Shown here: one piece after another, positions 3,434 through 27,085 of the stretch
Layout: every line of letters begins with the position of its first letter
Numbering within the stretch: the first letter of the stretch is position 1
The notes under the pieces: generated by a model
Database searches by the model: none
Told to the model about the DNA's origin: nothing
What the model saw: only the letters and a program-made list of their open reading frames with translations
Assembly (NCBI GenBank): GCA_964555185.1
Contig: CAZKRD010000003.1
Coordinates: forward strand, 19,943 to 83,942
Length of the DNA: 64,000 nucleotides
From: an uncultured Candidatus Saccharibacteria bacterium
GTDB lineage: Bacteria; Patescibacteriota; JAQUNI01
Reading direction: 5' to 3'
Translations under genes and position numbers: made by a program

Positions 3434-4027
3434 TTAAGGTAAACTTTCACAAGCAAGGCCATCGTTATCATTACCATCTAACCTATGAATGTTCCCAGCT
3501 CCTTGTTGCACACAATAGTTATAGCAGGCCTGAGCGGCGGCGTGAGTTGTGAAATCAGAACAATTATATCTGTTATAACTACAATCACAAACTGCTGTCG
3601 TGGGCGGTGGCGTAGGCTTAGGTGTCACTTTGGGTTGTGCAGTAGGGGTGGGTTCGACAGGTGTCGGTTCTAGTTCTTGTGGTTGAGGCGGTTGTTCTTG
3701 TTTTGGCTCTTGAATCAATGGTTCAACTTTTTGGGTTTGTTCGGTTTTGGGTTGTGTCGTAGGAGCGGGTTCAACAGGTGTCGATTCTGATTCTTCAGGT
3801 TGAGATGGTTCTTCTTGCTCTGGTTCTTGATTTAATGATTCAGCTTCTTGGGTTTGTTCAGTGGCTGATTGTTCCTGTACACCTTCTTGTGGTTGTTCTG
3901 CTTCGGTTGTTCCTGTTTTCGTCTCCTCTATATTGGTTTCTTCTTCTCTAGGGATTTGAGTGGTTTCTGTACAACCAGATAAAATCAACACGCCAACTAA
4001 AATAACAAATAATGTTATTTTTTTCAT
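3434..4027 (-). CDS. lipoprotein with Pro/Glu/Thr-rich tandem repeats and C-terminal Excalibur Ca-binding motif
   Basis: Lipobox LILSGC; ~100-bp tandem DNA repeats encoding EPxPTxQPK units; C-terminal DGNDNDGLACE matches the Excalibur DxDxDGxxCE motif. Confidence 0.6.
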   Translation of the reverse strand: MKKITLFVILVGVLILSGCTETTQIPREEETNIEETKTGTTEAEQPQEGVQEQSATEQTQEAESLNQEPEQEEPSQPEESESTPVEPAPTTQPKTEQTQKVEPLIQEPKQEQPPQPQELEPTPVEPTPTAQPKVTPKPTPPPTTAVCDCSYNRYNCSDFTTHAAAQACYNYCVQQGAGNIHRLDGNDNDGLACESLP

Positions 4028-4036
4028 CTTTTTGAA

Positions 4037-4294
4037 TTATTTTGCAAGCCCATTTCGTCTTAAACAATTTTGATAAGACCTTTCGAAATCATCACTTATT
4101 AAAAACTGTTGTTTGGCGACAAACTCTTTAAAAGTGCCATCGGTCTTAAAACTTCCCCCTACGGTTTCATAGCATTTTTTCCTAATCTGGCTTGGTCGCC
4201 ATTCAAACCAATAAAACCCAAATCCTAGAATGAGAAGCACCAAAACTACTAAGACTGTTTTCCAAATAAAGATTTTTTTGATTTTTTCTCTCAT
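4037..4294 (-). CDS. small single-TM protein (paralog family WFxxRPxQIRKxCY...CLxxxGL)
   Basis: 85 aa; TM helix then conserved motif shared with 5091..5420 and 5429..5683. Confidence 0.4.
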   Translation of the reverse strand: MREKIKKIFIWKTVLVVLVLLILGFGFYWFEWRPSQIRKKCYETVGGSFKTDGTFKEFVAKQQFLISDDFERSYQNCLRRNGLAK

Positions 4295-4302
4295 ATAATT
4301 GT

Positions 4303-4596
4303 TTAATAATGAACACCTGTTCCCTCCTCACCAAAGGTCTCTTCACAAAGGCTAAAACCGCCTTCCCATTTACAATTTTTGCCACATTCCCATCTATCAG
4401 TTAAATTCCCACTTTGAGATTTTATTCCTTCTCCCCACTTAACACATTCTTCGGCAGATTTTAAGTCTGGGCTAATTATATAATTATTACAAGTCAAACA
4501 ACCATTAGGATAATAGAAACCCTGATAATTATCTTTCTTAAAAAGGAAATTATATCCAAAATAAATAAAAGCTATAATTAAAATCAAAATCATCAT
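4303..4596 (-). CDS. small Cys-rich membrane protein
   Basis: 97 aa, N-terminal TM helix, 8 Cys. Confidence 0.3.
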   Translation of the reverse strand: MMILILIIAFIYFGYNFLFKKDNYQGFYYPNGCLTCNNYIISPDLKSAEECVKWGEGIKSQSGNLTDRWECGKNCKWEGGFSLCEETFGEEGTGVHY

Positions 4597-4671
4597 TTTT
4601 ATTGATGAAATAATTCTTGTTTTTGTCTATCGTCTTTTCCTCTATCATATATTTAAAATAAGGCCCATCGC

Positions 4672-5118
4672 CTATTTTTGTTCCTTGTCATGTTTACGCC
4701 TTGCAAAACCACCCACCATTAAAGCAATCGCAATAATAGTCCAAGCCATGGTCGCGCCACTAAAATATACCTGTTGCACTATAATTGTTGAAAACCACCC
4801 AGGTATTGCGAAGACAACCAAAAGCCCAATGCCCCAATAAACCAAGGTTTTACCCGAACGAAGGCCCATTTTGTCTTTGGCTTGTGCATATTCTTTATTT
4901 GATCGGAAAAGCATCCATACAAGCAAGCCTAAACCAACCCACTGGATAATCACAGCGACGATTGTTACTGCTAAAGACCTGCCAAGCAGAAGGAAAAGCA
5001 AACTAGGAATTACAGCAAGCAGGATAAGCCCCAGAACAATATTTTTTCTAACAGTCCATTGTTTCATGATATTAAAATTAGCTTTGTCACTTACTTTAAG
5101 CCGTGCTTCTCCAAGCAT
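4672..5118 (-). CDS. polytopic membrane protein
   Basis: 148 aa with 4 hydrophobic helices. Confidence 0.4.
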   Translation of the reverse strand: MLGEARLKVSDKANFNIMKQWTVRKNIVLGLILLAVIPSLLFLLLGRSLAVTIVAVIIQWVGLGLLVWMLFRSNKEYAQAKDKMGLRSGKTLVYWGIGLLVVFAIPGWFSTIIVQQVYFSGATMAWTIIAIALMVGGFARRKHDKEQK

Positions 5119-5420
5119 TGGTCGAAATAGACTTTAAAATCATCCATGTTATACATTTCTTCTTGCTCAACTGTTTTAGCAAGCTCCTCATCAAATTCCC
5201 CAAACTTTATTCGTATATCCTTCATTTTGTTTATCGCTTTTTCCGAGGCTAGGTCATCACACCTTTGCCTGATTCGTAGGGGGCGATATTCATACCAGTA
5301 AAACCACCCACCAATTACAATCAACAAGAAAACTAAAATCATCCCAACAAGCATAATTTTGGGTTTGATAGACTTCTTTTTTTCATCTGGCATATTTTCG
5401 TCTGCCATATATTTATCCAA
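5091..5420 (-). CDS. small single-TM protein (same paralog family)
   Basis: WFYWYEYRPLRIRQRCD...CLEKHGLK. Confidence 0.4.
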   Translation of the reverse strand: MDKYMADENMPDEKKKSIKPKIMLVGMILVFLLIVIGGWFYWYEYRPLRIRQRCDDLASEKAINKMKDIRIKFGEFDEELAKTVEQEEMYNMDDFKVYFDQCLEKHGLK

Positions 5421-5428
5421 GAGTCTAT

Positions 5429-5683
5429 TTATTCCTTTAGGCCGTGCTCATAAAGGCACGCCTGATAATAAAAGCCGAACATATTTTTTACAAAAGTATT
5501 AACTTCAGAGTCTGCTAATTTAGGTAATTCGACTTCTGTTAGGCCTTTCATTGTGTCGTTAGCTTCAGTATAGCAAGCCTTTCTTATTTGATAAGGTCTA
5601 AATTGAAACCAATAAAACAGGAATCCTAAAACCAGAATGATAACAACGATGTGAACGATCTTCCAAGAGAATATTCTTTTCAT
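5429..5683 (-). CDS. small single-TM protein (same paralog family)
   Basis: FYWFQFRPYQIRKACY...CLYEHGLKE. Confidence 0.4.
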   Translation of the reverse strand: MKRIFSWKIVHIVVIILVLGFLFYWFQFRPYQIRKACYTEANDTMKGLTEVELPKLADSEVNTFVKNMFGFYYQACLYEHGLKE

Positions 5684-6505
5684 ATGTTTAGAAAATATAC
5701 CTTGATTTAAATCACAAAACCTCCCGCCAGATTATGGTCTTGCGACCAACAGACTCTTTCGAGACTGACTTTGTAAAGCAAGTTCCTCTGACGAGAGGCT
5801 CTCTATGCTTTACAAGGCTTTTGATGCCATATCAGTTGAAAACTGACTTAGGCGATTTGATTGTAGGGTCTAACTGGTTAACTCCTCTTACATCAATTAT
5901 TACTTAGCCTTTTATAATCTTATTATACAGCAGAGGCTTATTATCTGTAAATCTTAAAATGAACATTAGCGCCTCGCTCTTGAAGCCAAGGCCTGTTCAA
6001 AATTTCCTTGCGCTCTTACTACTTGAAAGCGACTTACCAATTCGTTCACTGTCCCCCAAAAACAAGTTTTTTACGATAAAGCTGGAAACGAGAATGATTC
6101 CGATGAGTGAAATGCACAGAAGAAACAAGATTATCAGGAATATCAAGAAGATGAGGCAGTATTATTGATTCTTGCATTTTCCGAAGTCTCGGTGTAAGGT
6201 GGTATTAGAGTCGCAAAAAACACAGTTCAAAAAAGGACAATCTGGTAACCCTAAAGGTCGGCCCAAAGGAACTAAGAATTTCTCTACTATTTTTGATGCA
6301 GCTGTCAAACAGATAGCGATAAAGGATAACATCTCTGTAGCACAGATTGCTTTCGTAGTAGTAAAGAAGCTCAAGAGAAAGCAAGAGAGATCATAAAATT
6401 TTTAAGAGAAACACAAAACGAGAACGGCAACAATTAAACAAAAAAGGCGATAAAGAATCAACCTGTAAAAACAGGTAAAAAACAGGTGGGTGGTAGAAAA
6501 GCAAA

Positions 6506-10912: not shown

Positions 10913-13008
10913 TCCTTGAATTCCTTGACTGTTTGGGTAAATTCTTCATCAAGCAAGGGTTTACCCTCCTCATCTATTTTAACCTCAAATTTATTACTAT
11001 CAATTTTATAGATCGGAACAAAATGTTTAACACGCTTGATGGTTTTTACTTTGTATCCGACTCGCTGAATATCTTTCACAAAAATGTTGTAGCCATTCTC
11101 ATTGAGTTTCTTCAATTCTTTCTCAGATGGCTTGTAGGCAACGATGACCGTTGTATTGACTCCCGTATCGGCAAATACATTTGCAGGAAGATCGAATAAA
11201 GCAACGACTCTCATTTTTGACATAATCCATTTCCTTGCCTTCTCCCATCTATCAATTGATGCTATCGAATTTGAAAGTATAATACCGACTCGGCCGTTTT
11301 CTTTCAAGATACGGTAAGCATTTTCAAAAAACACAAGGCCGAGATCAATCCAATTTCCATTTCTTCCAACGTGCCAAAGCTCATAGAGTTCAATAATCTC
11401 TTTATCTTTTTGAGTTTTTGGTTCAAATTTCCTATCTTCTCCAAACGGCGGATTAGTTAGGACGATATCAAATTTTTTGAGTTCAGTATAGTCGTCCCAC
11501 GCATCCCAATTTCCGGCCTTGTGTTTTGCTGGAATGAGATTTACTAATTTCCCGTCCTTGTCGAATTTGTGAGTGATGGAACCATAGCCCGGCTGGAATT
11601 CTATCTTGGCGTTTCCGTCTCCGTTCAGAAGCATATTTAACTGTGCTAACATGACCATTTGCACGTCGTTATCAATTCCATAAATGTTTTTATCGTCCAT
11701 TTTTCTGTCGGACTTGACATAAGAAATTGACAAGAAATCTCCGCTGCCAACAGTCGGATCGGCTATCGTGTCCAACGCTTTCGGGTGAACTATATCAACA
11801 AGAAAATCAATCAATGGAATTGGTGTCAAAAATTGTCCCTTCTCGGATTTGGTAAAAGCGTTCGCAAAACGATAGAAAATGAGTTGATATAGATCAGTTG
11901 TACTCGATCTGGTAAAGCTGTAATCCTGCAAGTTATGGACTATTGAACCCACGACGGCAACATGTCCCTCGTTTTTCCAGTCAATAATTGAATTGCTCAA
12001 AATCACTTTATATGTACTTACCGCTTGGGCGCACAAATCCCGCATGCGTTTAATAAATGTTTGTATACTTTGGTCGTTGAGCGTCTTGAAATCGCGTTCA
12101 TTTTGTTCGATATAAAATTTGAGACGATGAATATCCCCGTATTCATCGTCTTGAATATAGTATTTCAACAACTCGTTCTTTTTTTCGTCGAAAATTTTGA
12201 GCGCGATAAGTTGAACCAAAATTTCATATCCGCGCTGGTTCAACATGCTTACCTTGTCGAGCGTTCGCAAAATATCGGAAATCGCCTGATTGATTTGAGT
12301 ACTAAAGACTCCGGTGATAACATCAAGATCATTTACGGTTCGTGCAGACCTGTCAATTTCTATATCAATAATGCGCTTTTTGATTTGATCAAAGGACGGA
12401 ATTTTTCGGAATTCATCGGGTAGGTGGAGAGACAATTCTCTTGTTGAACTGTTTTCTCCTTTTAGGTTGTACGATTCATCAAGGCGAATAAACTTGCCAT
12501 GCTTTTTTTGGAATAAAAATAGCCGTTCGGTGTCATAGAGAACGCCAAGACAAAAGTCGCTCTCCGATTCTTTAATGGCTGGTTTAAGTTGTTGATTATA
12601 GACCGTTTCAATATCCTTGCCATCTTCTTTCTTGAATTCAATGACGGCAATGAGATGACTTCTCAACCAATCAAGGTCGGATTGATTCTTTTTTGTAATC
12701 CAATTTTTATATCTATCAAACCAATTCTTATCGTCGAAAATCGCGCCGTCAAATTTGATGGGTGCAGAATTCTTGTTGCCTTTCGGAAAATAAACCTCCG
12801 AGCCGATAAAATCTTTTTGATAAAGTCCTGAATATACCAATCCGTAGAAAAATTGCCATTTGTAATATTCTTCGTTGGGCGTATTTCTTGACCCCTTGAT
12901 TTTGACCTTCTTATTCAACTTAAGATTGACAGGAAGGAAGGCCATGAAGTCTTTTTTTGTCAAATAGAACTTATCAAATTTTTGTTTTGTTTCAAAAAAT
13001 GTCTTCAT
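10861..13008 (-). CDS. type IIB/IIG restriction-modification enzyme (PD-(D/E)xK endonuclease fused to N6-adenine methyltransferase), BcgI-A-like
   Basis: N-terminal FDGAIFDD...IAVIEFKKED (D...ExK); methylase motif I DPTVGSGDFL and motif IV NPPFG; 3' end overlaps the specificity gene. Confidence 0.8.
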   Translation of the reverse strand: MKTFFETKQKFDKFYLTKKDFMAFLPVNLKLNKKVKIKGSRNTPNEEYYKWQFFYGLVYSGLYQKDFIGSEVYFPKGNKNSAPIKFDGAIFDDKNWFDRYKNWITKKNQSDLDWLRSHLIAVIEFKKEDGKDIETVYNQQLKPAIKESESDFCLGVLYDTERLFLFQKKHGKFIRLDESYNLKGENSSTRELSLHLPDEFRKIPSFDQIKKRIIDIEIDRSARTVNDLDVITGVFSTQINQAISDILRTLDKVSMLNQRGYEILVQLIALKIFDEKKNELLKYYIQDDEYGDIHRLKFYIEQNERDFKTLNDQSIQTFIKRMRDLCAQAVSTYKVILSNSIIDWKNEGHVAVVGSIVHNLQDYSFTRSSTTDLYQLIFYRFANAFTKSEKGQFLTPIPLIDFLVDIVHPKALDTIADPTVGSGDFLSISYVKSDRKMDDKNIYGIDNDVQMVMLAQLNMLLNGDGNAKIEFQPGYGSITHKFDKDGKLVNLIPAKHKAGNWDAWDDYTELKKFDIVLTNPPFGEDRKFEPKTQKDKEIIELYELWHVGRNGNWIDLGLVFFENAYRILKENGRVGIILSNSIASIDRWEKARKWIMSKMRVVALFDLPANVFADTGVNTTVIVAYKPSEKELKKLNENGYNIFVKDIQRVGYKVKTIKRVKHFVPIYKIDSNKFEVKIDEEGKPLLDEEFTQTVKEFKDWCLGQEKTLQDVFLDK

Positions 13009-13375: not shown

Positions 13376-14221
13376 TTATTTGTTCAGGCATTCTAAATAC
13401 TGCTTGTCAGACAGGGCTTTCGCTTCCTGCTCAGTCTTAACGACCGTTTCTTCCGCCTTGTCCTTGATCGCTTGTAGCAATTCTTCACTGGAGTAAACTG
13501 CGACCATACAAGTATCGTACTCTGATTGTCTAATATCTCGAAGTTGAGAAGGACTAAAAGGAAATCCTTGTAATCTTTCTGGTAATGGTTCGTATGATTT
13601 CTTAGCGCAGTCGCCTTTCGCATCTAATATTTCAAGTTCTTTAGGTTTCAATGTCTTTTCGGCCTCCTCTTGTATGTAATTCATATTGACCTTGAATTTG
13701 TCAAAACTTAACTGGGTTTCAGCCTTACATTTTTCTATCTTTAATTGAGTTTCCTCTTCCTTTCTTTGCTCTTCGGTTAGCCTTTGGGCTTCTTCCGTCG
13801 CTTTTTTCTCTGCTTCTACTTGTCTTTTTGCTTCCTTCTCGGCCTCAGCCTGTTGAGCCGCCAAGACTTGTTGTTGATGTTTTCTTTCTTCTTCTTGTTC
13901 CTTTGCTCTTCTCGCTATTTTTGCTTGGGCTTCTGCCTCTGCTTCTTCCGCTTCCTTTTCTACTCTTACTCTTTCCTCTGTTTGCCTCTGGAGTTCCGCT
14001 TCTTGCCTCTCTTTTTCCAGCTTAGTGATCTCTCGATCAATCAACTGCTTTCCTATTTGCTGTTCAGTTCTGATTTGCTCCTGCTCTGATGATCTTTGCG
14101 TTTTAACATAAGAAGCCAAGACCGAAAAGTTAATAATCAAAAAAAGCGCAACCCCAGCGCAAATATAAGAGAGAATCCTCCAAGGAAATATTTTTTTAAC
14201 GAAATTCCAGATTCGTTTCAT
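13376..14221 (-). CDS. membrane-anchored coiled-coil protein (E/K/Q/A-rich)
   Basis: N-terminal TM helix, ~150-aa charged coiled-coil segment, Cys-containing C-terminal domain. Confidence 0.4.
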   Translation of the reverse strand: MKRIWNFVKKIFPWRILSYICAGVALFLIINFSVLASYVKTQRSSEQEQIRTEQQIGKQLIDREITKLEKERQEAELQRQTEERVRVEKEAEEAEAEAQAKIARRAKEQEEERKHQQQVLAAQQAEAEKEAKRQVEAEKKATEEAQRLTEEQRKEEETQLKIEKCKAETQLSFDKFKVNMNYIQEEAEKTLKPKELEILDAKGDCAKKSYEPLPERLQGFPFSPSQLRDIRQSEYDTCMVAVYSSEELLQAIKDKAEETVVKTEQEAKALSDKQYLECLNK

Positions 14222-14241
14222 CTTTTTAAATATTTTTATAT

Positions 14242-14296
14242 AAAAACGTGGAAAAACGTGGAAAAACGTGGAAAACCATGGAAAATGGTGGAATTG
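14242..14296. repeat. 10-bp tandem repeat array (gaaaaacgtg x3 plus two degenerate units)
   Basis: aaaacgtggaaaaacgtggaaaaacgtggaaaaccatggaaaatggtggaa immediately upstream of the 13376..14221 start. Confidence 0.75.
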
Positions 14297-14797
14297 CAGC
14301 TCCCAAAGGTTGGGATTTAGAGTGAGGGTTGTAGTAAATCGAGATTGAGGTCGAGTAGGTCAGGTGCTTTATGTTGTCCGATTCAATGCTATGTCAAAAA
14401 CCGTTATAGAAGAGGTTATAAAAAATGCGATAGTTAGCATGACAAGAATGGATATATTTTTTCGTTCCTTTATTCTATTTTTATAATTTGTCCTGCCCTG
14501 CCACTCACTATATAATTATAAAACCTGCTTTCATTATAGCAGGTCGCTTTGATTGAAGGAATCAAAGGAGTTCGAATTTGATTCGGGGTAATAAAAAATA
14601 ATCGCGTCGATAAGCGATTTTTTTGTTGGCTCCCTGTATTGGACGCATTTAGAACTATAGATTGGTACAAGATTAAACAAGAATTTAAGCTTATTCAATT
14701 TATACTCAAACGCAATAATGTTTATATAATGCTTTGAAAAAAATCCCATTTGATTTTGACATTTTCCACATTTTATAATAAAATTAAAGTAAGAATT

Positions 14798-14941
14798 ATG
14801 TCAGACGCAAATTTATTAAACCTTATTATTGGAATCATTGGTGGCGTTCTGGGTGTTATAGCAACGCTTTTGGTTTTTTTTATAAAAATTGGCAGAGCTA
14901 TTGAAAAAATAGACAAGCTTGAAGAATGGAAAAAAATGTGA
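14798..14941 (+). CDS. small single-TM protein
   Basis: MSDANLLNLIIGIIGGVLGVIATLLVFFIKIGR...; first + strand gene of the AT-rich module. Confidence 0.3.
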   Translation: MSDANLLNLIIGIIGGVLGVIATLLVFFIKIGRAIEKIDKLEEWKKM

Positions 14942-16429: not shown

Positions 16430-16690
16430 ATGAAAATAACAGAGATTCAAATAATTCCAATTAAGCCTCAAAACGGTCTTGTGGCCTTTGCCAGCGTAGT
16501 ATTCGATAATTGTCTCTATCTAGGCTCAATAGGCGTTTATTCCCGCCTAGACGGCACAGGATACCGCCTTACCTATCCCATGAAGAAAATAGGCGACAAG
16601 AATATCAATATCTACCACCCCATCAACAGAGAAGCCAGCGAGGCCATTGAAAAAGCAATAATCGCAAAGGCAAGGGAGATATTAAACTAA
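16430..16690 (+). CDS. spoVG: SpoVG family protein
   Basis: MKITEIQIIPIKPQNGLVAFASVVFDNCLYLGSIGVY...NINIYHPINREASEAIEKAI aligns by eye along its length with SpoVG. Confidence 0.75.
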   Translation: MKITEIQIIPIKPQNGLVAFASVVFDNCLYLGSIGVYSRLDGTGYRLTYPMKKIGDKNINIYHPINREASEAIEKAIIAKAREILN

Positions 16691-16874
16691 ACAACCACTA
16701 AAGAAGTAATGAAAATATTAGACACTATTATTTTAACAATGCCTATTAGTTATTATGATATTACCGACCACTCACACTTCATTCCTTCAGTTGAAGGAAT
16801 GTTGGAAAGCCGACGGGCTTATTGCAAATACCAAAAGCTTTTTAGAAAACGATTTGACTTAGATAAAAATAAGT

Positions 16875-17087
16875 ATGAACAAATGTGAAAAACTTTACCA
16901 AAAAGGACTGAAACAAATCAAAGAAGGGACAAGACTTTCTCCCTTAAGGGCTATTCGCTTGAAATGTCTTGATTGTTCTGGTTGGTCAGAAGCAGAGGTA
17001 AGAAAATGCGTTATTCTTGACTGTGCTCTGTATAAGTTTAGATTTGGTAGAAACATGACAGGGAAAAATCCATCAAAACGTAGATAA
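16875..17087 (+). CDS. small Cys-rich protein
   Basis: CLDCSGWSEAEVRKCVILDC. Confidence 0.3.
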   Translation: MNKCEKLYQKGLKQIKEGTRLSPLRAIRLKCLDCSGWSEAEVRKCVILDCALYKFRFGRNMTGKNPSKRR

Positions 17088-17640
17088 AACTATAGACCGA
17101 TAGTCTCCCCTAGATACCCCTCAAACTTACCTCCAAGGGTCTCATCAGAAGGATTAAAGAATTTATATAGCTTTTACAAGGATTTACTAGTAATCTTTTT
17201 ATTTATAAAAATAATTGTGATGAGAGGAGGGGGTGGATCGTTCCATGTCATATCCTGAATACAAAGCAATTCATGACTCTTCCATTAAAAAAGCAAAATT
17301 ATTTTTGAGAATAGAAAATGACTTTTATAGAAAAGAATAAATTTAAAATCAGATTAAGATTTTCTAAAAATAAGTTAAGTGATCAGGCACTTAATAGGGT
17401 TTTTAATTTTATTTTGAACCTGAGTGATTCAGATATTAGCTCCAAAAAATATGAACAAAATAATTGTTCAGAGAAAAATGAGCATTTTCGCTGAAAGTGG
17501 TGTTAGATTTTAAGGGTTGCCATCCAACACCACTTCTAGTAGAAACTAACCCTTTATCAGAAATAATTAGTACATCAATAAGAATAGTGAGCGGTGGTGC
17601 TAATGCCTTCACCGCTTACTATTCCTGTTGAAAAGGCATT

Positions 17641-18078
17641 ATGAGTGAACCAGAAAAGTTGGAAACAATTATAACAAGACGGAAAGAAGGAGAACATACG
17701 CGGGACGACTCGGCGAAGGAATTTTTGCGCAAAAGGGATATTGAGGTGCGTGATCCAGAAAAAGCAAAAAGAAAACAATCAGTAAAGGTGCTAAAATTGC
17801 AATTTGTTGGCATCTACATAAATTTATTGGGACTGCTTAAGGGTAATGAATTAAAAGTTTATTTGTATATGCGGGTTAGACGGCGAATGAAAAGAAGCAC
17901 GATTGCCGATGAGACCGAATTTTTTAAGGATAAAAGTATATCAGCCAAAGAGCTGAATATCTCAACACCAACCCTTCTTAAAGCCATCGTTGGATTGGAG
18001 AAAAAAGGACTAGTGAAAAGGGACGGCAGGACTTCTGGCGGATTTGTAAAATTAAAAGTATTTAGTCAGCCCAAGTAA
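17641..18078 (+). CDS. winged-helix DNA-binding protein (replication-initiator/regulator-like)
   Basis: C-terminal ...ISAKELNISTPTLLKAIVGLEKKGLVKRDG... wHTH pattern; iteron array immediately downstream. Confidence 0.4.
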   Translation: MSEPEKLETIITRRKEGEHTRDDSAKEFLRKRDIEVRDPEKAKRKQSVKVLKLQFVGIYINLLGLLKGNELKVYLYMRVRRRMKRSTIADETEFFKDKSISAKELNISTPTLLKAIVGLEKKGLVKRDGRTSGGFVKLKVFSQPK

Positions 18079-18160
18079 AATTTTTTTACCTAGCAAGTAA
18101 ATTTTTTTTACTTGACAGGTAAAGTTTCTTTACTTGGGTAAGTAAAATTTCTTTACTTGG
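18075..18160. repeat. iteron-like array: four ~21-bp units, each a GTAAA-N6-8-TTTACYTGG palindrome
   Basis: gtaaaatttttttacctag / gtaaattttttttacttgacag / gtaaagtttctttacttgg / gtaagtaaaatttctttacttgg. Confidence 0.65.
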
Positions 18161-18641
18161 CTCAAAGCACAAAATGCCTTCTTCTACGCTTATATTAAAG
18201 GAAAAAATAGAAGCAAGAACGCTCTACATAAAGTAAGGCCACATATATAAAGATATAGATATAAAGATATAGATAGAGAAGTATTAACTTAAAGAAGGGG
18301 AAAGAAAAGAAAACTTCTAAAGAAGTTTGTTTCTTCCCCTCTTCTAACCTATCTTTACTTAACCTATCCTTACCTAACCTTACCTGTGCCGTCCGTGGAC
18401 CGTCCACCTATTCTGCTTGTATTGTTTTTTACATGTTTTGCTAACGCAAAACCGATTAAAAAATCTTTAAAAAATACAAAGAATCTTTTAAATCTTTGTT
18501 GGATATTATCAAAAAGAATCAAAAAATAAAGAGTTTTATGCGCGCTTTATAAAAAGAGAAGTGTCCCATTTATAAAAAAGAGGGCCCACACGAGCCTTAA
18601 AAGGTGATTATAAGGAAGTGTATAACTTAAGTTGACAAAAG

Positions 18642-18857
18642 ATGACAAAGAGGTACAATAATATAAAGAACATAAATAGGATGAATAACAATAAAAAGAA
18701 AATTCAACTTTATACCACCCAAGAAGTAGCTGACATTTTAAGGGTCAGTCGGCGAACTGTGTATAGGCTTATTAAATCTGGAAAATTAAAGGCAGTGATG
18801 ATTGGGCAATGGAGAATTAAAGCAGAGGATTTAGATAAGTTTTTAGATAGTCGTTAA
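18642..18857 (+). CDS. excisionase-family helix-turn-helix DNA-binding protein
   Basis: LYTTQEVADILRVSRRTVYRLIKSGKLKAV is the classic HTH_17/Xis pattern. Confidence 0.65.
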   Translation: MTKRYNNIKNINRMNNNKKKIQLYTTQEVADILRVSRRTVYRLIKSGKLKAVMIGQWRIKAEDLDKFLDSR

Positions 18858-18868
18858 TCTAAATTTAT

Positions 18869-20479
18869 ATGAAGAAAGTCGCTATTTACACAAGAGTTTC
18901 TAGCGAAGAGCAAGTAAATGGTTATAGCCTAGGAGATCAACAAGAGAAGTTGCAGGATTATTGTAAATCCAATGGTTTTCTATTAGAAAAAAGACATATA
19001 TACCGAGAGGAAGGAATTAGTGGCGCAAAAAAGGAAAGGCCTGTTTTAAGCCTGTTATTACAGGCAGCTCAAAATAAGGAGTTTGCCTTAGTTTTAGTTT
19101 ATAAATTAGATCGGTTTTCAAGGAGCCTAAAGAATCTCCTTGAGCTAGTTGCTGATTTAGAGAGAAATGGAATTGGTTTTAAGTCAATTACAGAGACATT
19201 TGATACTTCAACTCCGATGGGCAAGTATATGCTTCAGAATTTAGGGTCCATAGCTGAACTAGAGAGAGAGATGATCAGAGAAAGGACTCTAATGGGACAA
19301 ATCAAGTATCTTAAAGAGGGCAACTGGAAGGGGGGCATTACTCCCTATGGATACGATTACAATAAAGAGACTCACAAACTTGAAATTAATAAAGAAGAGG
19401 CTAAGATTGTTCGGAAAATGTATAAATGGGTTGCAGAAGAAGGTTCAACTTCACATTCAGTCCAAAAGCGACTTAATGATTTAGGGATTTCTACTAAGTA
19501 TGGTAACTTAGGTAAAAAGAAGCAGGTTAATGGTGCGTGCTTTTGGAAGAAAAGGACCGTTGGCAGGATTTTAACTAACGAGATTTATTCGGGTACATTT
19601 ACTTATCGTAAATATAAATATTTGGGGAGGGTTAGAGGAGAAGATAATTTACGTCCCGAGGACGAGTGGATTAAGATTAAAACTCCTAGAATAGTTAGTA
19701 AAAAGATTTTTGATTTGGTCCAGAATCAAATAAATAAAAATAAAAAACACTCACCGAGAAATAGTAAGTATAAATATCTTTTTGCCCACATGATTAAGTG
19801 TGGTTACTGTGAAGGTAGGTATGGGAGTATGTATAGTGCTGAACGCAAAAGAGGTGTAGTTGGACGGAAGAGATATTTTTGTCATAACACCAGAGCGGAT
19901 AATAAACAGGAGAAATGTAAAGCCAAAAGCGTGGCAGAAAAAAGAATTAGTGAGCCCATCTGGAACAAGATAGCAGAGGCGTTGAGTAATCCAGCCATAG
20001 CTTTTGAGCAATTGGAAAAGATACAGAAGAAAGAGAACAACATTGAGGAGGTTCAAGAGAAACAGAGAGAATCAGATAAGCTGATCCTTAAGAACAAAGA
20101 AAAATCCAGACGATTACTGGATTTGTATTTGGGAGGTGGGGTAGATAAGGAGACTTACGAAGAGAAAGTGGGGGAGATAAATAAAGAGGCCGATAGCTTC
20201 AGGCGGGAAAAAGTAAGGTATAATAACCTTTTTATTTCCAAAGAAGAGAAGAAGGCGAGAACACAATCAATTCAGGAGATGTATGGGCGGTTCAAGGACA
20301 ATCTTAAGAAAATCACCTATTCTCAAAAGAGAGAAGTGCTTAAAATGTTGATAGATAAGGTAATTATTAAAGGCGCAAAGATTGATATTTACTGTAATAT
20401 TCCCTATAAATACTCGTTTGAGGGACAGTCAACTCTCCTTCCGTGTCTTTGCCTTCGGGGTCGGGCAGAAATTCATTGA
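18869..20479 (+). CDS. large serine recombinase (integrase)
   Basis: N-terminal AIYTRVSSEEQ catalytic serine motif, recombinase domain, Cys-rich zinc ribbon (CGYCEG...C...C), coiled-coil C-terminus. The last ~15 codons read antisense through the LTD gene. Confidence 0.9.
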   Translation: MKKVAIYTRVSSEEQVNGYSLGDQQEKLQDYCKSNGFLLEKRHIYREEGISGAKKERPVLSLLLQAAQNKEFALVLVYKLDRFSRSLKNLLELVADLERNGIGFKSITETFDTSTPMGKYMLQNLGSIAELEREMIRERTLMGQIKYLKEGNWKGGITPYGYDYNKETHKLEINKEEAKIVRKMYKWVAEEGSTSHSVQKRLNDLGISTKYGNLGKKKQVNGACFWKKRTVGRILTNEIYSGTFTYRKYKYLGRVRGEDNLRPEDEWIKIKTPRIVSKKIFDLVQNQINKNKKHSPRNSKYKYLFAHMIKCGYCEGRYGSMYSAERKRGVVGRKRYFCHNTRADNKQEKCKAKSVAEKRISEPIWNKIAEALSNPAIAFEQLEKIQKKENNIEEVQEKQRESDKLILKNKEKSRRLLDLYLGGGVDKETYEEKVGEINKEADSFRREKVRYNNLFISKEEKKARTQSIQEMYGRFKDNLKKITYSQKREVLKMLIDKVIIKGAKIDIYCNIPYKYSFEGQSTLLPCLCLRGRAEIH

Positions 20480-21935
20480 TCCAGACAGTGCGTGGATATT
20501 CTTGGGCTTCTTTAGGGCTTTGAGCTGAACAAATGTTTTGTTCAGCTGGTGTGGGTTCTAGGCTCCAACACCAATCACCATTCATTTTATTATAAGATTC
20601 AGCTTTGGGGGCTTCTCCATATTCAATCTCATCAATTGCTTGGCCTGAGGGCCAGAGGAGCCTGACCCAATCACCACTGTTGTTTAAGGTGATCTTGGTT
20701 TCGGAATAGGGGAGGCTTAGATACTCCCCTGCTTTAATTTCAGAATCTTCAGGAAAGGTATAGGGCCGTGATCCTTTATCCTCTTCGTCATCTAATTGCC
20801 AATTTTCCAGATCAATTTCATCTGGGCCTGGGTTGTAAAGTTCAATAAATTCTCCTTCCGTGTCCTTACCTTCGGGGTCGGGTAAAAATTCTGAAATCCA
20901 GATATGACGGGGATAGCTGGAAGAATCGTCTTTTTCGTCTTCTGAAATTACATTCTTCTGTCCAGGTGTTAAAGTAGTGCTCCAGGTCCAAGTGTCATCT
21001 TCCTTACGATTGTAGGATTGGTTTTTGGGTACAGGGCCGGAATAACTTACCTCTTCCAAGGTTTCATTATTGTGAATCAAAAAGACTGTGTCACCACTAT
21101 TGTTTAAAAGGAATTTTGAACCGGTGTAAAAGGCAAGGTAAGAATAGGCCGGCATCGTGGTGCCGGGATCAATTGTAAAACTTGAGGCGGTCTTATCTTT
21201 TATTTTCCAAGATGATAAATCAGCGGTTGTGTCTGAATTATTGAAAAGCTCAACAAACTCTCCTTCCTGGTCAGAGCCCTCTGGGTCAGGCAGAAATTCA
21301 TTGATTACAATATAGTTTATAGAGGGGGTGGTATCTTGGGGGTAGGCGGCGCTGTTTTTTTGTTTGGGCGTGCCATAGATTGGGCCACCATTGCTGTCTT
21401 TACCATTTATAACTATTTGATTGTTCGTCGCCCAATTATCAGAGCTTGAAGCTTCTTTTTGGGGGTCAACCCTTTCCATGCTTGTTTTGTCTGTACTGTT
21501 GCCGCTCAACCAGTCGCTGGAATTGTCTATTTCATCGATTGTATTATTTAAGTTGTCTTTTAAGACAAGATGCTCTCCAGAGTTTTCTAGAGCGCCGGTA
21601 TAGATTTTGTTAGCGGGAAGGTCGGAGATTGTGTTATCATCGGTGCGCTCAAGCAGATAATAGCTTTTTGCCGGAATTGTATCAGCAAGAGCAATTGTTG
21701 GCGTACCATCTTTTGCTTCTAGGGTCCAACCAGCAAGGCCTATATCTTGATCAGTGTTATTAAAAAGTTCAATCCACTCATCCGCGGTAGAAGCCCCAGT
21801 TCCCATCCAAGCAATTTCGTTGATTAGGACATCACTAGGTGAGGCGGCATAGGTCCTGAAAACAAAAGATTCTGCCCCCAAGCAGAACAGAAGAAATATA
21901 ATTAGTCCGAGCGGCAATCTATATTGCCTACGCAT
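20367..21935 (-). CDS. secreted lamin-tail-domain (LTD) repeat protein, 3'-truncated
   Basis: Signal peptide; four repeats of INEFLPDPEG(S/K)D.EGEF(V/I)EL(F/Y)N; the fourth stops after ...PDPEGKDTEGE and continues as non-homologous residues from the recombinase region. Confidence 0.65.
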   Translation of the reverse strand: MRRQYRLPLGLIIFLLFCLGAESFVFRTYAASPSDVLINEIAWMGTGASTADEWIELFNNTDQDIGLAGWTLEAKDGTPTIALADTIPAKSYYLLERTDDNTISDLPANKIYTGALENSGEHLVLKDNLNNTIDEIDNSSDWLSGNSTDKTSMERVDPQKEASSSDNWATNNQIVINGKDSNGGPIYGTPKQKNSAAYPQDTTPSINYIVINEFLPDPEGSDQEGEFVELFNNSDTTADLSSWKIKDKTASSFTIDPGTTMPAYSYLAFYTGSKFLLNNSGDTVFLIHNNETLEEVSYSGPVPKNQSYNRKEDDTWTWSTTLTPGQKNVISEDEKDDSSSYPRHIWISEFLPDPEGKDTEGEFIELYNPGPDEIDLENWQLDDEEDKGSRPYTFPEDSEIKAGEYLSLPYSETKITLNNSGDWVRLLWPSGQAIDEIEYGEAPKAESYNKMNGDWCWSLEPTPAEQNICSAQSPKEAQEYPRTVWINEFLPDPEGKDTEGELTVPQTSIYREYYSKYQSLRL

Positions 21936-22965: not shown

Positions 22966-23982
22966 TTAGATTAGTTTTTGTTTTGGTTTGATAATATTAA
23001 GATGCTGATAAGCAAGCGGAGTGGCGACTCTGCCTCGCGGGGTCCGCGCGATCAGGCCGCTTTGCAATAAAAACGGTTCATAAACATCCTCAATCGCGTC
23101 TCGCTCTTCAGCCGACGAAGCGGCCAGGGCGCGCAAGCCCACTGGTCCCCCGTTGAATTTTTCAATAATATTTTTGAGAAGCTCGCGGTCAACCTGATCA
23201 AGGCCGAGCGTATCTATTTCCAAGATTTCTAAGGCTCTTTGGGCAACAGAGAGTGTGATTCTGCCCTCTGCCTTTATTTCCGCATAATCCCGCACTCTTT
23301 TTAAAAGCCGGTTAGCAACCCTGGGCGTGCAGCGCGAACAGACGGCGATTTTATCTAAGGCTTTATTTTCTATGTATTTGATATTTAAAAGTCGAGCAGA
23401 ACGTTTGATGATTGCTTTGATTTCGTCGGTCTCATAGTAACGGAGACGGTAGATTGCACCAAAGCGGTCGCGTAAAGGAGAGGAGAGCATTCCGATTTTA
23501 GTGGTCGCGCCGATCAGGGTGAAGCGGTTTAGGGGCAGGCGGATGTTTTTGGCCGCCGGTCCTTTGCCGATAATAATATCTAAAACCTGGTCTTCCATTG
23601 CCGGATAGAGGATTTCTTCGATCTGGCGGGCAAGCCGGTGGCATTCGTCAATAAAAAGGGTGTCGCCGTCTTCTAAATTGGTCAGGATTGAGGCGAGGTC
23701 TCCGGGTCGTTCAATTGCCGGCCCAGAGGTGGTTCTCAAGGAAACTTGAGCTTCGCGGGCGATAATATTAGCAAGCGTGGTTTTGCCTAGGCCCGGCGCG
23801 CCATAGAGGAGGATATGCTCTAGGGGTTCGCCTCTTTTTTTTGCTGCGGCTAAAAAAATCCGCAAACTTTCTTTGATTTTGGCCTGGCCAATGTATTCAT
23901 TCAGGGTCTTTGGCCGCAGGGCCAAATCAAGCTTTTTATCTTCATTTTTTTCTTGAGGAGAAACAGTTGGATTTTGGTCCAT
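22966..23982 (-). CDS. ruvB: Holliday junction DNA helicase RuvB
   Basis: [12 protein letters not shown]...[18 protein letters not shown], sensor and arginine finger regions, ~338 aa. Confidence 0.95.
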
Positions 23983-24059
23983 TTTTGTACTTCAATTGTT
24001 TTATTTTACCATTTTCTTAGTGTATTGACAAGAAAATTCAGCTATGGTAAGATATTTAG

Positions 24060-24365
24060 TTCAAAGTGACCAAGGGTCATCCCGAGGATGAGCGAGGCGA
24101 GGATGAAGGGATCTCGCGGGTATTCCTTAAGGATCCTTGGGACCTTCGATTTATAATTAATGCTTCTTAATCTGTAGGCGGTTTTACGGGGCTATGCTTG
24201 TCAATGGATTTTTTAATGGCGAGTTACCCCTCGCTTAGCGAAGATTTTCGGATGATGATCGTAAATTGAATCTTCATTGGGCGAGGGGGCCAGACTTTCC
24301 TAATCCTTGGAGTTTAGCCTTGCTCTTAAGTAGACTTAGGAGCTTAGCGTCTACAGATTAAGAGG
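24060..24365. ncRNA. candidate structured RNA of unknown class (strand undetermined)
   Basis: ~420-bp ORF-free gap in a compact genome. Nested long-range complementarities: 24070-24078/24132-24140 (9 bp), 24168-24180/24348-24360 (13 bp incl. one G-U), 24227-24234/24281-24288 (8 bp), plus local hairpins. Confidence 0.3.
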
Positions 24366-24425
24366 CATTTATTGTTTTAAAATCTGGGTGGTAATCATCA
24401 AAAACAGAAGGAGGGATGATGTATC

Positions 24426-24848
24426 GTGAAGAAGAAAATGTTCGCTTTTTTGTACTTTTTGCCACTCTTTGTGGTTATTCTCACCACAGTTATTAGATGG
24501 GGGAATCCGGAGAGCTTTAAGGGGGTTTTGGGGCTGCTTTCACCTCTCCTTAACCTCGTGCTTTGCTACTTGCTGCTAAGTTGGAAGATTTTCCGCAAGA
24601 TTTTCTTGCATGAGAGGTTTGTTGTGGGACAAACTTCCCATGCGAAGGCTTATAACAGGATCAAGGACAAGGAGATTCACGTTCATTTGCAAGTGGGTAG
24701 GAAAGTGGTGATTGATCAGAAGGTGTGCGTTAGAGCAACGGTCCCTTCTATAGATAAGCCGTGCATTTTGGTAGCCGTGGTTAATGAAGATGGAGAATCA
24801 ACCAGTCTTCCTTCTGCTGCAACCATTACTATCCTGGGCCCCTGCTAA
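24426..24848 (+). CDS. hypothetical membrane-anchored protein
   Basis: 140 aa, two N-terminal hydrophobic helices; followed by a terminator. Confidence 0.4.
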   Translation: MKKKMFAFLYFLPLFVVILTTVIRWGNPESFKGVLGLLSPLLNLVLCYLLLSWKIFRKIFLHERFVVGQTSHAKAYNRIKDKEIHVHLQVGRKVVIDQKVCVRATVPSIDKPCILVAVVNEDGESTSLPSAATITILGPC

Positions 24849-24884
24849 AGCGGTAGAAATATAAGACCGCTTTTTTATTTTTGG
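24848..24884 (+). terminator. rho-independent terminator
   Basis: aagcggt-N12-accgctt then TTTTTTATTTTT. Confidence 0.5.
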
Positions 24885-25122
24885 AACTTAAATCCCTTGA
24901 TTCCAAACTCCGCATTATTCAGAAAACATTGTCTTTCTTTGCTTTTTGGATTATAATCTACTAATATATTCAGTTAATTTCGTTCTTTCTACTTTTCGCG
25001 GTTGGCATTTCAATGTGGAGGGAGGTTTTTAAAATGTCAAATTTGGAGCTACACTATGATTCGGGTGTTTCGGTAGTTTAATGTTTTCTCGTATGTTCTG
25101 TCAAAGAAAAGGAAGGAGAGGG

Positions 25123-25875
25123 ATGATGGTTAATGAAAAGGCAATAGCACTAGCCCTGAAACAGGGCGAGAGCTTGGCGGCAGCAGATCAGGTTCTGATT
25201 AATCCAAGGCCTGGAGATTTAGTTTCAATGACCACAGCGGCAATAGCAGCAATCCGGAAGCACGCCTGCACACCAGCCCAGGAGGGAGAGGCGCTTATTC
25301 TTTTGGGTCGTAATTTCGTCGGGAGAGAGGCAGTAATCGTAGGATATAAGCCCGAAGAGAGAGATGACGCCTTTAAGCAGGTTCTCGCCGCGCTGGATAG
25401 TTTAGACTTAGAAATCCAGAAAAACGTAGTGGAATCCCTTCTTGCTGATATGCAGTCAGTGAATGGTGGAGACAGTCTGCCTGGTCTTTGGGCAGAGAGG
25501 ATTCGCGAGAAATTAAATCAGGAAAAACCAGCCGGTTCTTTCTTGATCAAACTTGGAGAGCAAATACATCGCTGCGTTTATACGAAGATGGTTGAAAGAG
25601 AGATGGGCAAATTCGGGAACGATTTTGCCCGGGGCCTGGGGTGGATGAGATCATTTTACTGCCAAGTTTCCACAAACCCAGTATTGGCCTGGAAGGCATA
25701 TCTTGAAGATCTAGGTTTAAGGGAAAAGCTGAAAAGCAAAATTGCGGAGCACAGTGATTGGCTTGCGGATCCTGAAGCTTACAAGTTTGAGATCGCAATG
25801 CAGGCAACACTCTTGGCGCTCTGGCCTAATCTCACCATTTTCCGCCCATTAGCCTGTGTTCACCGATCTTACTGA
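25123..25875 (+). CDS. hypothetical protein (upstream half of overlapping pair; higher GC)
   Basis: ORF from track trimmed to MMVNEK; contains ...YCQVSTNPVLAWKAY weakly resembling the transaldolase TTNPSL motif. Confidence 0.35.
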   Translation: MMVNEKAIALALKQGESLAAADQVLINPRPGDLVSMTTAAIAAIRKHACTPAQEGEALILLGRNFVGREAVIVGYKPEERDDAFKQVLAALDSLDLEIQKNVVESLLADMQSVNGGDSLPGLWAERIREKLNQEKPAGSFLIKLGEQIHRCVYTKMVEREMGKFGNDFARGLGWMRSFYCQVSTNPVLAWKAYLEDLGLREKLKSKIAEHSDWLADPEAYKFEIAMQATLLALWPNLTIFRPLACVHRSY

Positions 25876-27085
25876 CTATCAGGTGAGTTTTCAGTTAAGT
25901 CCTCTGATCGCTGGTTCGGTTGAAAAGAGCATTGCGGATGCTGAACGCGCTCGTCAACAGGCCAGAGAATTCTTGATAAAGTATGATCAATTACTGGGTT
26001 TTGGCGATGAAGCCGGGAAAATAGCACCGAATTTGGTTCTGAAAGTTGCTGCCTGCCATCCGGCTGCTCTGGAAATCACCCGTAAGTTGAATAGCCGGGG
26101 ACAGGGCACGAATAACACATTGGTCTATGCAGTAGCCCAAGAGGTTATGCTCTGGATAGAAGCTTTAAAGGGCAAGGCTGCGGCATTAAATACAGGACAT
26201 CCGGTTGTCCGAACCTATATGACCAATATGCCGGGACGGCTGGTTAGTCATCTTCGGGAGCAAGCAGCCGTTAGTATATTTAACTTAGTTGCTAAGTATC
26301 GTTCTGTTAGTCAGGCCATGGATCTTCTGGAGAAGCTTGCAAACGAACTGGGTGTAGATAGGGCAGTTTGGGAAGCTCTCGCACCTAGCGATATTGAGAC
26401 AAAAGTAAGGGTCATTTGCGCCTATAAGTATCTCAAGACCCTTGATCCTGCTGACCAGCCCACTATAATGGAAACGGCAATATTAGCTGGGTATTCGCAA
26501 GAAAGTCTGGAAACTTTAGAGAAGGCCCTGAAAATGGCTGGAACCTTTGTCGCCCAACGGGTTTGGAAAATATTCTTGTCTCCAGGAAATAAGGAGAAAT
26601 GGATAGCCTTTATAGAAAGGGAATACAACCTGAGCCGCGAAAAGGCAGAATGGGTTGTGGACTCGATGGGATATCTCCCTGCGTCCAAACGGACTCCAGA
26701 TGATACTTTGCTCGCACTTGGTGATAATATGATCCACACCGAGTTCCCTAACCATGGTCGGAGCGTTGCAGAGTATGCAGAATTGGCAGGCTTTCAGCTT
26801 GAGGATTATCGGGATTCGATTGCCTCCGAGCCTGAATATCCCTGGCTTACTTTACTGCAAGCGCTTCCTGATTTTTGTCGGGCATATGGTCTCACCCAAG
26901 AGATAAAAGACTTTCTGGTGGCAAGAGTTGGAATCACAGATGTGATGCACTGGGGAACAGAAGGCTTAAAGCCGGAAGAATGGTCAACTTTCGGGTCTGT
27001 GCAGAAAACCGCCTGCGAATTTCAATTTGCCTTTGGCGAGTTTGTGAAGATGTGTCTGGAGATTGCCAGAGAGGCTGCGGGGTAG
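25856..27085 (+). CDS. hypothetical protein with transaldolase/Fsa-like active-site segment
   Basis: LVLKVAACHPAALEITRKLNSRGQGTNNTLVYAVAQ aligns by eye with FsaA [35 protein letters not shown] and TalB ILIKLAST...NCNLTLLFSFAQA. Overlaps the previous ORF by 20 nt in the +1 frame. Confidence 0.4.
   Translation: MFTDLTDYQVSFQLSPLIAGSVEKSIADAERARQQAREFLIKYDQLLGFGDEAGKIAPNLVLKVAACHPAALEITRKLNSRGQGTNNTLVYAVAQEVMLWIEALKGKAAALNTGHPVVRTYMTNMPGRLVSHLREQAAVSIFNLVAKYRSVSQAMDLLEKLANELGVDRAVWEALAPSDIETKVRVICAYKYLKTLDPADQPTIMETAILAGYSQESLETLEKALKMAGTFVAQRVWKIFLSPGNKEKWIAFIEREYNLSREKAEWVVDSMGYLPASKRTPDDTLLALGDNMIHTEFPNHGRSVAEYAELAGFQLEDYRDSIASEPEYPWLTLLQALPDFCRAYGLTQEIKDFLVARVGITDVMHWGTEGLKPEEWSTFGSVQKTACEFQFAFGEFVKMCLEIAREAAG

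Follow-up and report, generated by a model that had tools for sequence, protein, structure and literature searches.

An uncatalogued structured RNA gene divergent from ruvB

What kind of element occupies the gap without open reading frames (ORFs) beside ruvB in the genome of an uncultured Candidatus Saccharibacteria bacterium? We analysed a stretch of 64,000 nucleotides from contig CAZKRD010000003.1 (the window), in which an initial annotation had flagged positions 24060-24365 as a candidate novel structured RNA of unassigned class. The interval holds a genuine structured RNA gene on the plus strand that has not been catalogued, that is narrower than flagged and that is neither ribonuclease P (RNase P) RNA nor transfer-messenger RNA (tmRNA) nor a leader. 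We are highly confident that positions 24157-24371 (+) encode a rod-shaped structured RNA whose gene is single-copy and transcribed independently; its family is absent from Rfam 15 and occurs in a Patescibacteria lineage. The idea of a novel structured RNA is therefore upheld, as we observed compensatory changes in five helices, a promoter of its own, terminators and no Rfam 15 match in the window or its homologues. Of the extent proposed initially only 24157-24371 is conserved among homologues (~215 of ~305 flagged bases), whereas 24060-24156 turned out to be an unconserved leader. The region had been described as lying after ruvB; since ruvB is encoded on the minus strand (22966-23982), the interval is instead the divergent region upstream of the ruvB start.

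Homologues, covariation and transcription

For the comparison we fetched the contigs of RuvB relatives at 74-97% identity, and a pattern scan of metagenomes (ATCTGTAGGCGG N28-58 AGTTACCCCT) added further copies; the pattern, which was probably too strict, matched three contigs, all of them in-clade. This gave seven distinct in-clade copies, namely those of the window, L033, L035, L036, L037, L042 (identical to L044) and L043. An eighth and far more divergent copy, the outgroup L049, was found by synteny (TPR protein, VanW-like protein, then the RNA), and its VanW-like protein is only 39% identical. While nhmmer misses L049, the covariance model built on the seven in-clade copies aligns with it over its full length (70.9 bits, E ~1e-14), and its RNA folds with z = -10.3 relative to shuffled sequences. 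The RNA is single-copy within the 64-kb window according to BLAST, nhmmer and the covariance model, and each relative contig has one copy, which is invariably found in the same neighbourhood. The named closest relatives of the RuvB and VanW-like proteins of the window belong to Magasanikbacteria, Falkowbacteria, Uhrbacteria and 'Parcubacteria'. Beyond this set, the RNA was not found on the contigs of RuvB relatives at 66-69% identity (a Firmicute contig and a Magasanikbacteria contig), and a RuvB search of genome contigs led mostly to unrelated phyla and to no locus with the RNA. The short contigs L038-L041 do not contain the RNA region, the loci of a VanW homologue at 37% identity (L050-L052) show a different synteny and no covariance-model match, and the RNA was not found in the viral, phage or plasmid collections searched.

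Homologous regions had been proposed as a check for covariation, and here compensatory changes are present above the shuffle as well as the slide controls. In the in-clade alignment (seven sequences, MAFFT) 95.6% of the cells are paired and 20 of 79 pairs are compensatory, compared with 12.0 +/- 2.0 after shuffling of the columns (none of 500 shuffles attains 20) and at most 6 with the partners slid. With L049 included, 97.2% of the cells are paired and 31 of 73 pairs are compensatory (11.7 +/- 2.3 in shuffles, at most 12 with the partners slid) in an alignment of eight sequences that was fitted to the covariance model, which favours structure. The MAFFT alignment and independent single-sequence folds agree, as each homologue folded alone shows the same architecture. 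All five helices, P1 to P5, contribute compensatory changes. Two of the helices seen initially are supported by this covariation, the 13-bp helix 24168-24180/24348-24360 as the inner part of the 24-bp P1 and the 8-bp helix 24227-24234/24281-24288 as the base of P4. The 9-bp helix 24070-24078/24132-24140 and the hairpin CAUCC-CGA-GGAUG do exist in the window, but they belong to the leader that is replaced in L033. The hairpin GCGAG-UUACCC-CUCGC had to be given up, since it acquires a C-A mismatch in L035, L037, L042 and L043 whereas the competing P3 and P4 stay intact.

The strand could be assigned from several observations. Folding gave -132.3 kcal/mol on the plus strand versus -94 +/- 5 for shuffles (z = -7.1), and only -97.5 kcal/mol on the minus strand. 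Several G-U pairs, which would be A-C mismatches on the minus strand, are invariant or nearly so, and the covariance model scores 175-184 bits on the plus versus 25-26 bits on the minus strand; in the window, model R1 matches 24161-24367 with 184.4 bits (+) and 25.6 bits (-). The conserved G-U pairs and the model scores thus place the RNA on the plus strand, which takes the RNase P-like string AGGAAAGUCUGGCC of the minus strand out of consideration. Between the window and the RuvB relatives at 75-78% identity the RNA core is 74-79% identical and the third codon positions of ruvB 45-48%, and as the RNA is more conserved than these positions we conclude that it is under purifying selection. Short ORFs of 31-34 aa overlap the region, and indels of 1-2 nt and of 80-110 nt among the homologues show that no reading frame is conserved. 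A degraded coding sequence, which had been considered initially, is highly improbable given the broken frame together with the conserved G-U pairs.

A promoter precedes the RNA in every homologue: the arrangement of TTGAC(A/T), a 17-nt spacer and a TG-extended -10 is present 15-115 nt upstream of P1 in 8/8 sequences, although that of L049 is weaker with a -10 below the threshold of the scanner. Because this sigma-70-type promoter lies at such a distance from P1, the variable leader is presumably trimmed off. A TATAAT box adjoins P1 in the window (24152-24157) and also in L049, and judged by its sequence it may be a second, proximal promoter. Intrinsic terminators follow P1 after 10-30 nt in L035, L036 and L049 (10 nt in L049). 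In the window, a U-rich tail, UUAUUGUUUU (24372-24381), comes right after P1 and is a possible termination point.

The leader itself differs between lineages. In the window it carries a GC-rich hairpin (24070-24140), while in L033, whose RuvB is 97% identical, it is an unrelated T-rich sequence with three tandem CACTCTT units (~2860-2925, minus strand of that contig). The leaders of L037 and L043 (L043 1070-1180, minus strand) carry CCCCG...CGGGG hairpins. Their sequences suggest that small insertions have entered a spacer that tolerates them.

Architecture of the RNA

The RNA, which ranges from 180 to 290 nt across the family, is closed by P1, a helix of 24 bp in the window and of 21-24 bp in the family that pairs the 5' with the 3' end (Table 1). 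Seven of its 20 modelled pairs show compensatory changes, and 98% are paired. P1 opens into a three-way junction with 5-13 unpaired nucleotides on the 5' side and 25-27 nt on the 3' side, the latter being mostly taken up by the side hairpin P5, which in L049 is reduced to 6 bp with a 13-nt loop. P2, P3 and P4 form an irregular arm of ~45 bp whose length is conserved, and the tip beyond it varies: in L035, L036, L037, L042 and L043 the apex consists of 80-110 nt of branched, unalignable hairpins instead. Even in L049 the positions of the bulges and of the internal loop are kept. In P3, the G-U pair 70-217 occurs in 7/8 sequences and is A-U in L049, and the U-G pair 74-213 occurs in 7/8 sequences and is unpaired in L049.

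Two helical blocks are invariant, CUGUAG(G/A)CG/CGUCUACAG beside the junction and CCCCUC/GAGGGG at the base of P4, the latter lying ~30-36 bp up the arm from the junction. While the other helices covary freely, the inner P1 and the base of P4 keep their sequence across the eight homologues. Counted in the sequences, GAGGGG and CGUCUACAG are 56-59 nt apart in every copy, and the window and L049 share a spacing of exactly 59 nt.

Table 1: Features of the RNA gene in the window, in 5' to 3' order.
Feature	Position	Strand	Remarks
Distal promoter: TTGACA, 17-nt spacer, TG-extended -10 TAAGAT	24025-24053	+	10/12 matches; predicted start near 24060
Variable 5' leader, outside the conserved RNA	24060-24156	+	Length and sequence differ in every homologue
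Conserved structured RNA gene, P1 to P1	24157-24371	+	~215 nt; nhmmer profile match 24158-24371
P1, 5' strand	24157-24180	+	Inner CUGUAG(G/A)CG kept in 8/8 homologues
J1/2, single-stranded 5' side of three-way junction	24181-24188	+	GUUUUACG; 5-13 nt in homologues, poorly conserved
P2, 5' strand	24189-24210	+	Small bulges; 19 pairs, 9 compensatory
Asymmetric A/U-rich internal loop, 5' side	24211-24218	+	8-12 nt in family, sequence variable
P3, 5' strand	24219-24225	+	GCGAGUU; 7 pairs
P4, 5' strand	24227-24248	+	Base CCCCUC invariant; 18 pairs, 10 compensatory, 98.6% paired
Apical region	24249-24266	+	Short in window (18 nt); variable tip
P4, 3' strand	24267-24288	+	Ends in invariant GAGGGG; folds and covariation
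P3, 3' strand	24293-24299	+	GACUUUC; preceded by 4-nt bulge 24289-24292
P2, 3' strand	24302-24320	+	Folds and covariation
P5, side hairpin at junction	24322-24343	+	9 bp, UAGA loop; 9 pairs, 4 compensatory
P1, 3' strand	24348-24371	+	CGUCUACAG invariant

Possible functions and rival explanations

Our leading hypothesis for the function of this RNA is a 6S-like role, and by analogy of shape 6S RNA would be the best-fitting bacterial class; we put this forward tentatively, and the same reservation applies to the proposal that the RNA acts in trans as a decoy of the RNA polymerase holoenzyme. The holoenzyme covers ~70 bp of DNA, and 6S RNA mimics an open promoter and sequesters the holoenzyme. 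In the RNA described here P1 would mimic the downstream duplex DNA, the junction (J1/2 and the P5 side) the opened bubble, and P2-P4 the upstream promoter DNA. CCCCUC/GAGGGG and the adjoining bulges, ~30-36 bp from the junction, would then be located at the position equivalent to -35. The invariant 5' strand of the inner P1 beside the junction would serve as template for a short release (product) RNA, and in a 6S-like RNA this would be the reason for the conservation of the inner P1. The conserved rod of ~70 bp would correspond to the length of DNA covered by the holoenzyme, with the tip and the leader beyond it free to vary. The rod fold of the 6S type is indeed found, with an end-paired closing stem, an interruption and a terminal stem with variable tip, all supported by covariation.

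Several points weigh against a 6S-like role. Neither the Rfam 6S model (RF00013) nor the lineage-specific 6S families gave a match at E <=10, even when the 231 nt were searched alone. Where 6S RNA has a large two-sided bubble, we found a three-way junction with 5-13 unpaired nucleotides on its 5' side, and this short side, of only 5 nt in L049, is not conserved; the characterised 6S RNAs have larger and less structured open bubbles. The upstream arm (~45 bp) is longer than in known 6S RNAs and includes invariant helical sequence, a feature that is not known to be needed by 6S RNAs. A release hairpin formed by the P5 loop GUAGAC with GUCUAC of the P1 3' strand was considered as a family feature and rejected, as it is absent from L049. 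Finally, the recovered set comprises eight distinct sequences from two sub-lineages only.

We consider it about as likely as the 6S-like role, and put it forward just as tentatively, that the RNA is a subunit of a different, undescribed ribonucleoprotein. One or more proteins would read the invariant helical blocks and the fixed bulges (inner P1, P3/P4 boundary, junction), and P1 would also be a processing stem of the RNase III type, at which the mature RNA is freed from its variable leader. The invariance of the sequence itself in the inner P1 and at the base of P4 in 8/8 homologues fits this explanation, as do the bulge and loop positions kept in L049. The near-perfect P1 (21-24 bp) and P4 (18-20 bp) are long enough for a double-strand RNase, duplexes of this length being sufficient as RNase III substrates, and there is a leader of 15-115 nt. 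No partner gene travels along with the RNA, however: the neighbours (ruvB, genes for VanW-like and TAL_FSA-like proteins and small membrane ORFs) have no connection with RNA biology, and the TAL_FSA-like gene as well as the small membrane ORFs are missing from some loci. The explanation is also unspecific and hard to tell from the 6S-like model. A further reading, to which we give a similar weight, is that the RNA is neither a 6S analogue nor a member of any known class, being instead a subunit of a new housekeeping ribonucleoprotein that is specific to one branch of the candidate phyla radiation (CPR) and whose partner reads CUGUAGRCG/CGUCUACAG and CCCCUC/GAGGGG at a fixed distance on the ~70-bp rod.

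A precursor or base-pairing regulator, with duplexes cut into small RNAs or exposed segments pairing with messenger RNA, is improbable. The stand-alone unit of promoter and terminator resembles that of many bacterial small RNAs, and the long perfect duplexes gave chance matches resembling microRNA precursors in Rfam, which reflect the hairpin shape. However, J1/2, the tip and both the internal and the P5 loop are variable, and the conserved sequence is buried in helices; the lack of a conserved single-stranded seed argues against an antisense regulator.

A large riboswitch or leader for 24426-27085 had been among the initial suggestions, and we consider a cis-acting element of this kind (for ORF 24426-24848 and the TAL_FSA-like gene up to 27085) very unlikely. 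It is true that the window, L037, L042 and L043 each have an ORF of the same orientation, equipped with a GGAGG site, that begins 45-60 nt beyond P1, and that the terminator of L035 separates the RNA from the following ribosome-binding site in the manner of an attenuator. The downstream gene, however, differs or is absent between loci. In the window, L035 and L036 the TAL_FSA-like gene follows the RNA, in L037 and L042 it precedes the RNA, and L033 and L049 lack it. In the latter two loci the RNA converges on the 3' end of the VanW-like gene and has no ORF downstream. As the TAL_FSA-like gene is found on either side or not at all, the RNA is a separate gene and not a dedicated leader or riboswitch. 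In L033 a compensatory change maintains the structure although there is no gene to regulate, the terminators mentioned above follow the RNA in three homologues, and the closed rod lacks a conserved junction sequence resembling a ligand pocket.

That the RNA is a strongly diverged member of a known housekeeping class (RNase P RNA, tmRNA or signal recognition particle (SRP) RNA) is still less probable. Its position is conserved like that of a core gene, and there are two short resemblances, AGGAAAGUCUGGCC on the minus strand to the 5' strand of RNase P P4 and GGGGCUAUGCUUG on the plus strand to the tmRNA 5' end. Nevertheless, no model matches at E <=10 in nine loci, ARAGORN finds nothing, and the defining features fail. 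With Rfam 15 at gathering thresholds the whole window yielded only tRNA-Glu and LOOT, and at E <=10 (region, six homologue loci, L049 and the 231-nt core) only chance matches to eukaryotic microRNAs and small nucleolar RNAs were obtained. The Rfam search that had been proposed for RNase P, tmRNA, 6S and SRP RNA thus gave no match of this RNA to any bacterial model at E <=10.

For RNase P RNA (RNaseP_bact_a/b) this holds on either strand of the region in the window, the six homologue loci and L049. The P4 strands (GAGGAAAGUCCGG ... ACAGAA.CCGGCUUA) are not found as a long-range pseudoknot on the transcribed strand, the string on the minus strand has no complementary CCAGACUU partner there, and the string itself is not conserved (GGCCAGACUUGCCU and GGGCAGACUUGCCU in homologues, GAUCUUACUUCCUU in L049). 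RNase P RNA is therefore ruled out on three counts: the strand is wrong, the topology of a nested rod leaves no room for the P4 pseudoknot, and conserved P4 strands are missing. The resemblance noted initially is due to chance. The tmRNA-like GGGGCUAUGCUUG fared no better, being an internal and variable part of the P2 5' strand; neither Rfam nor ARAGORN, which reported only tRNA-Glu in the window, detected a tmRNA, and the class is excluded because a tRNA-like domain (acceptor stem, T arm, CCA-proximal 3' end), which a simple nested rod is unable to form, is missing. SRP RNA is excluded because the apex, which in SRP RNA is the conserved domain IV (GNAR tetraloop with symmetric and asymmetric loops) bound by the SRP protein Ffh, is here the most variable part (18 to ~110 nt), in addition to the missing model match. 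A retron non-coding RNA was rejected since no reverse transcriptase is present in any neighbourhood and the order of hairpins (msr, then msd, within flanking inverted repeats) fits only the excluded minus strand. More generally, gene context, copy number and model searches speak against retron RNAs, mobile elements and self-cleaving ribozymes.

That the locus is no RNA gene at all, being a miniature inverted-repeat mobile element, a DNA palindrome or a decayed coding sequence, is the least probable explanation, since in spite of terminal inverted repeats of 22-24 bp around ~200 bp and the overlapping short ORFs it is single-copy, syntenic, absent from the phage, plasmid and viral collections, keeps its G-U pairs, carries frame-breaking indels and exceeds the third-position conservation of ruvB. 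A miniature inverted-repeat element in particular would need dispersed copies, whereas the locus was found just once in the 64-kb window and once on each relative contig, in a syntenic position throughout.

Locus setting and comparison with known systems

The interval lies in an ORF-free gap of 443 bp, which had been called unusual for a compact genome. Such a gap is ordinary here, as a crude ORF tiling of the window (~80% coding) revealed 15 gaps >250 bp. Further ORF-free gaps of 700-950 bp in this tiling are 14221-14919, 16690-17641 and 18078-18869. Between 61221 and 63595 there are 2.4 kb without an ORF of at least 80 aa, in which we found short minus-strand ORFs without Pfam match, no Rfam match at E <=0.1 and no notable repeats.

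The promoter-like sites of ruvB and of the RNA gene are arranged back to back (24003-24053), and their -35 hexamers overlap (TTGACA 24025-24030, plus strand; TTGTCA 24031-24026, minus strand), so that both genes could share or compete for polymerase binding. On the other side of the RNA, small hydrophobic proteins are encoded by ORFs with GGAGG ribosome-binding sites in several loci, among them the window (24426-24848, plus strand, 140 aa) and L042 (6086-6265, plus strand, 59 aa); the two have no Pfam match and no obvious mutual similarity. The TAL_FSA-like gene is a single ORF of ~650 aa in L035, L036, L037 and L039. It is split into the overlapping ORFs 25081-25875 (264 aa) and 25856-27085 (409 aa), both on the plus strand, in the window and into 3563-4981 (472 aa) and 4959-5597 (212 aa) in L042, which could result from a frameshift, a pseudogene or an assembly error. 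A gene for a large serine recombinase (18869-20479, plus strand; Resolvase/Recombinase/Zn_ribbon in relatives) lies at a distance of 3.5 kb. It overlaps by ~110 bp with the 3' end of the convergent gene for a lamin-tail-domain protein (20367-21935, minus strand), and the recombinase gene may mark an integrated element. In L042 a weak 19-nt match to the tmRNA 3' end (12599-12617, minus strand; model positions 346-374, E 0.026), cut by the contig end, suggests that the tmRNA gene of the clade lies ~6.5 kb from the RNA; no tmRNA was detected at the corresponding place in the window.

Bacteria of the CPR represent a large share of bacterial diversity, and they have very small genomes, few recognisable regulators and are mostly uncultured. 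Very few non-coding RNAs are known from them. A full-text literature search revealed no paper on 6S RNA together with the candidate phyla radiation, and searches on 6S or other non-coding RNAs in these phyla gave nothing relevant and no description of this RNA family. As the RNA is supported by covariation, driven by a promoter and constrained above the silent sites of ruvB, these bacteria have in it a concrete candidate for either a new ribonucleoprotein or a global regulator. If it is a true 6S equivalent, the structural definition of that class would widen to a three-way junction that replaces the open bubble; if it is not, it represents a rod-shaped RNA of a new class, whose helices are sequence-specific. 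With the covariance model R1 it might now be possible to chart the family across Patescibacteria genomes.

Among the known systems LOOT RNA (RF03000) is comparable as a lineage-restricted orphan RNA that is supported by covariation and encoded between genes of a very small genome. LOOT is, however, in Rfam and consists of several hairpins in ~120 nt, whereas the RNA beside ruvB is an unrelated rod of 180-290 nt in sequence and fold. A LOOT RNA is itself encoded in the window (5734-5854, minus strand; 56.6 bits versus a gathering score of 46.4), and its presence identifies the genome as one of the CPR. The RNase III stalks of ribosomal RNA (rRNA) precursors also show a near-perfect flanking duplex of >20 bp that is preceded by a strong promoter and a dispensable leader. 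In contrast to them, the RNA enclosed here has only ~170 nt and matches no rRNA model, and the inner 9-12 bp of the stalk are the most conserved. Y RNAs, which associate with Ro60 (YrlA in bacteria), share the long stem of paired ends with features for protein recognition and the variable distal module, and they differ in that we found no Rfam Y RNA match, no Ro60/Rsr gene nearby at any locus and no tRNA-like distal domain. The closest likeness in shape is to 6S RNA (ssrS; RF00013) and the mycobacterial Ms1, which are likewise single-copy RNAs of ~180-300 nt with paired ends, mostly duplex and with fixed bulges. With both the RNA also shares a sigma-70-type promoter with a leader that needs trimming, an interruption in the middle of the duplex with a hairpin on its 3' side, a variable apex and a rod that approximates the footprint of RNA polymerase.

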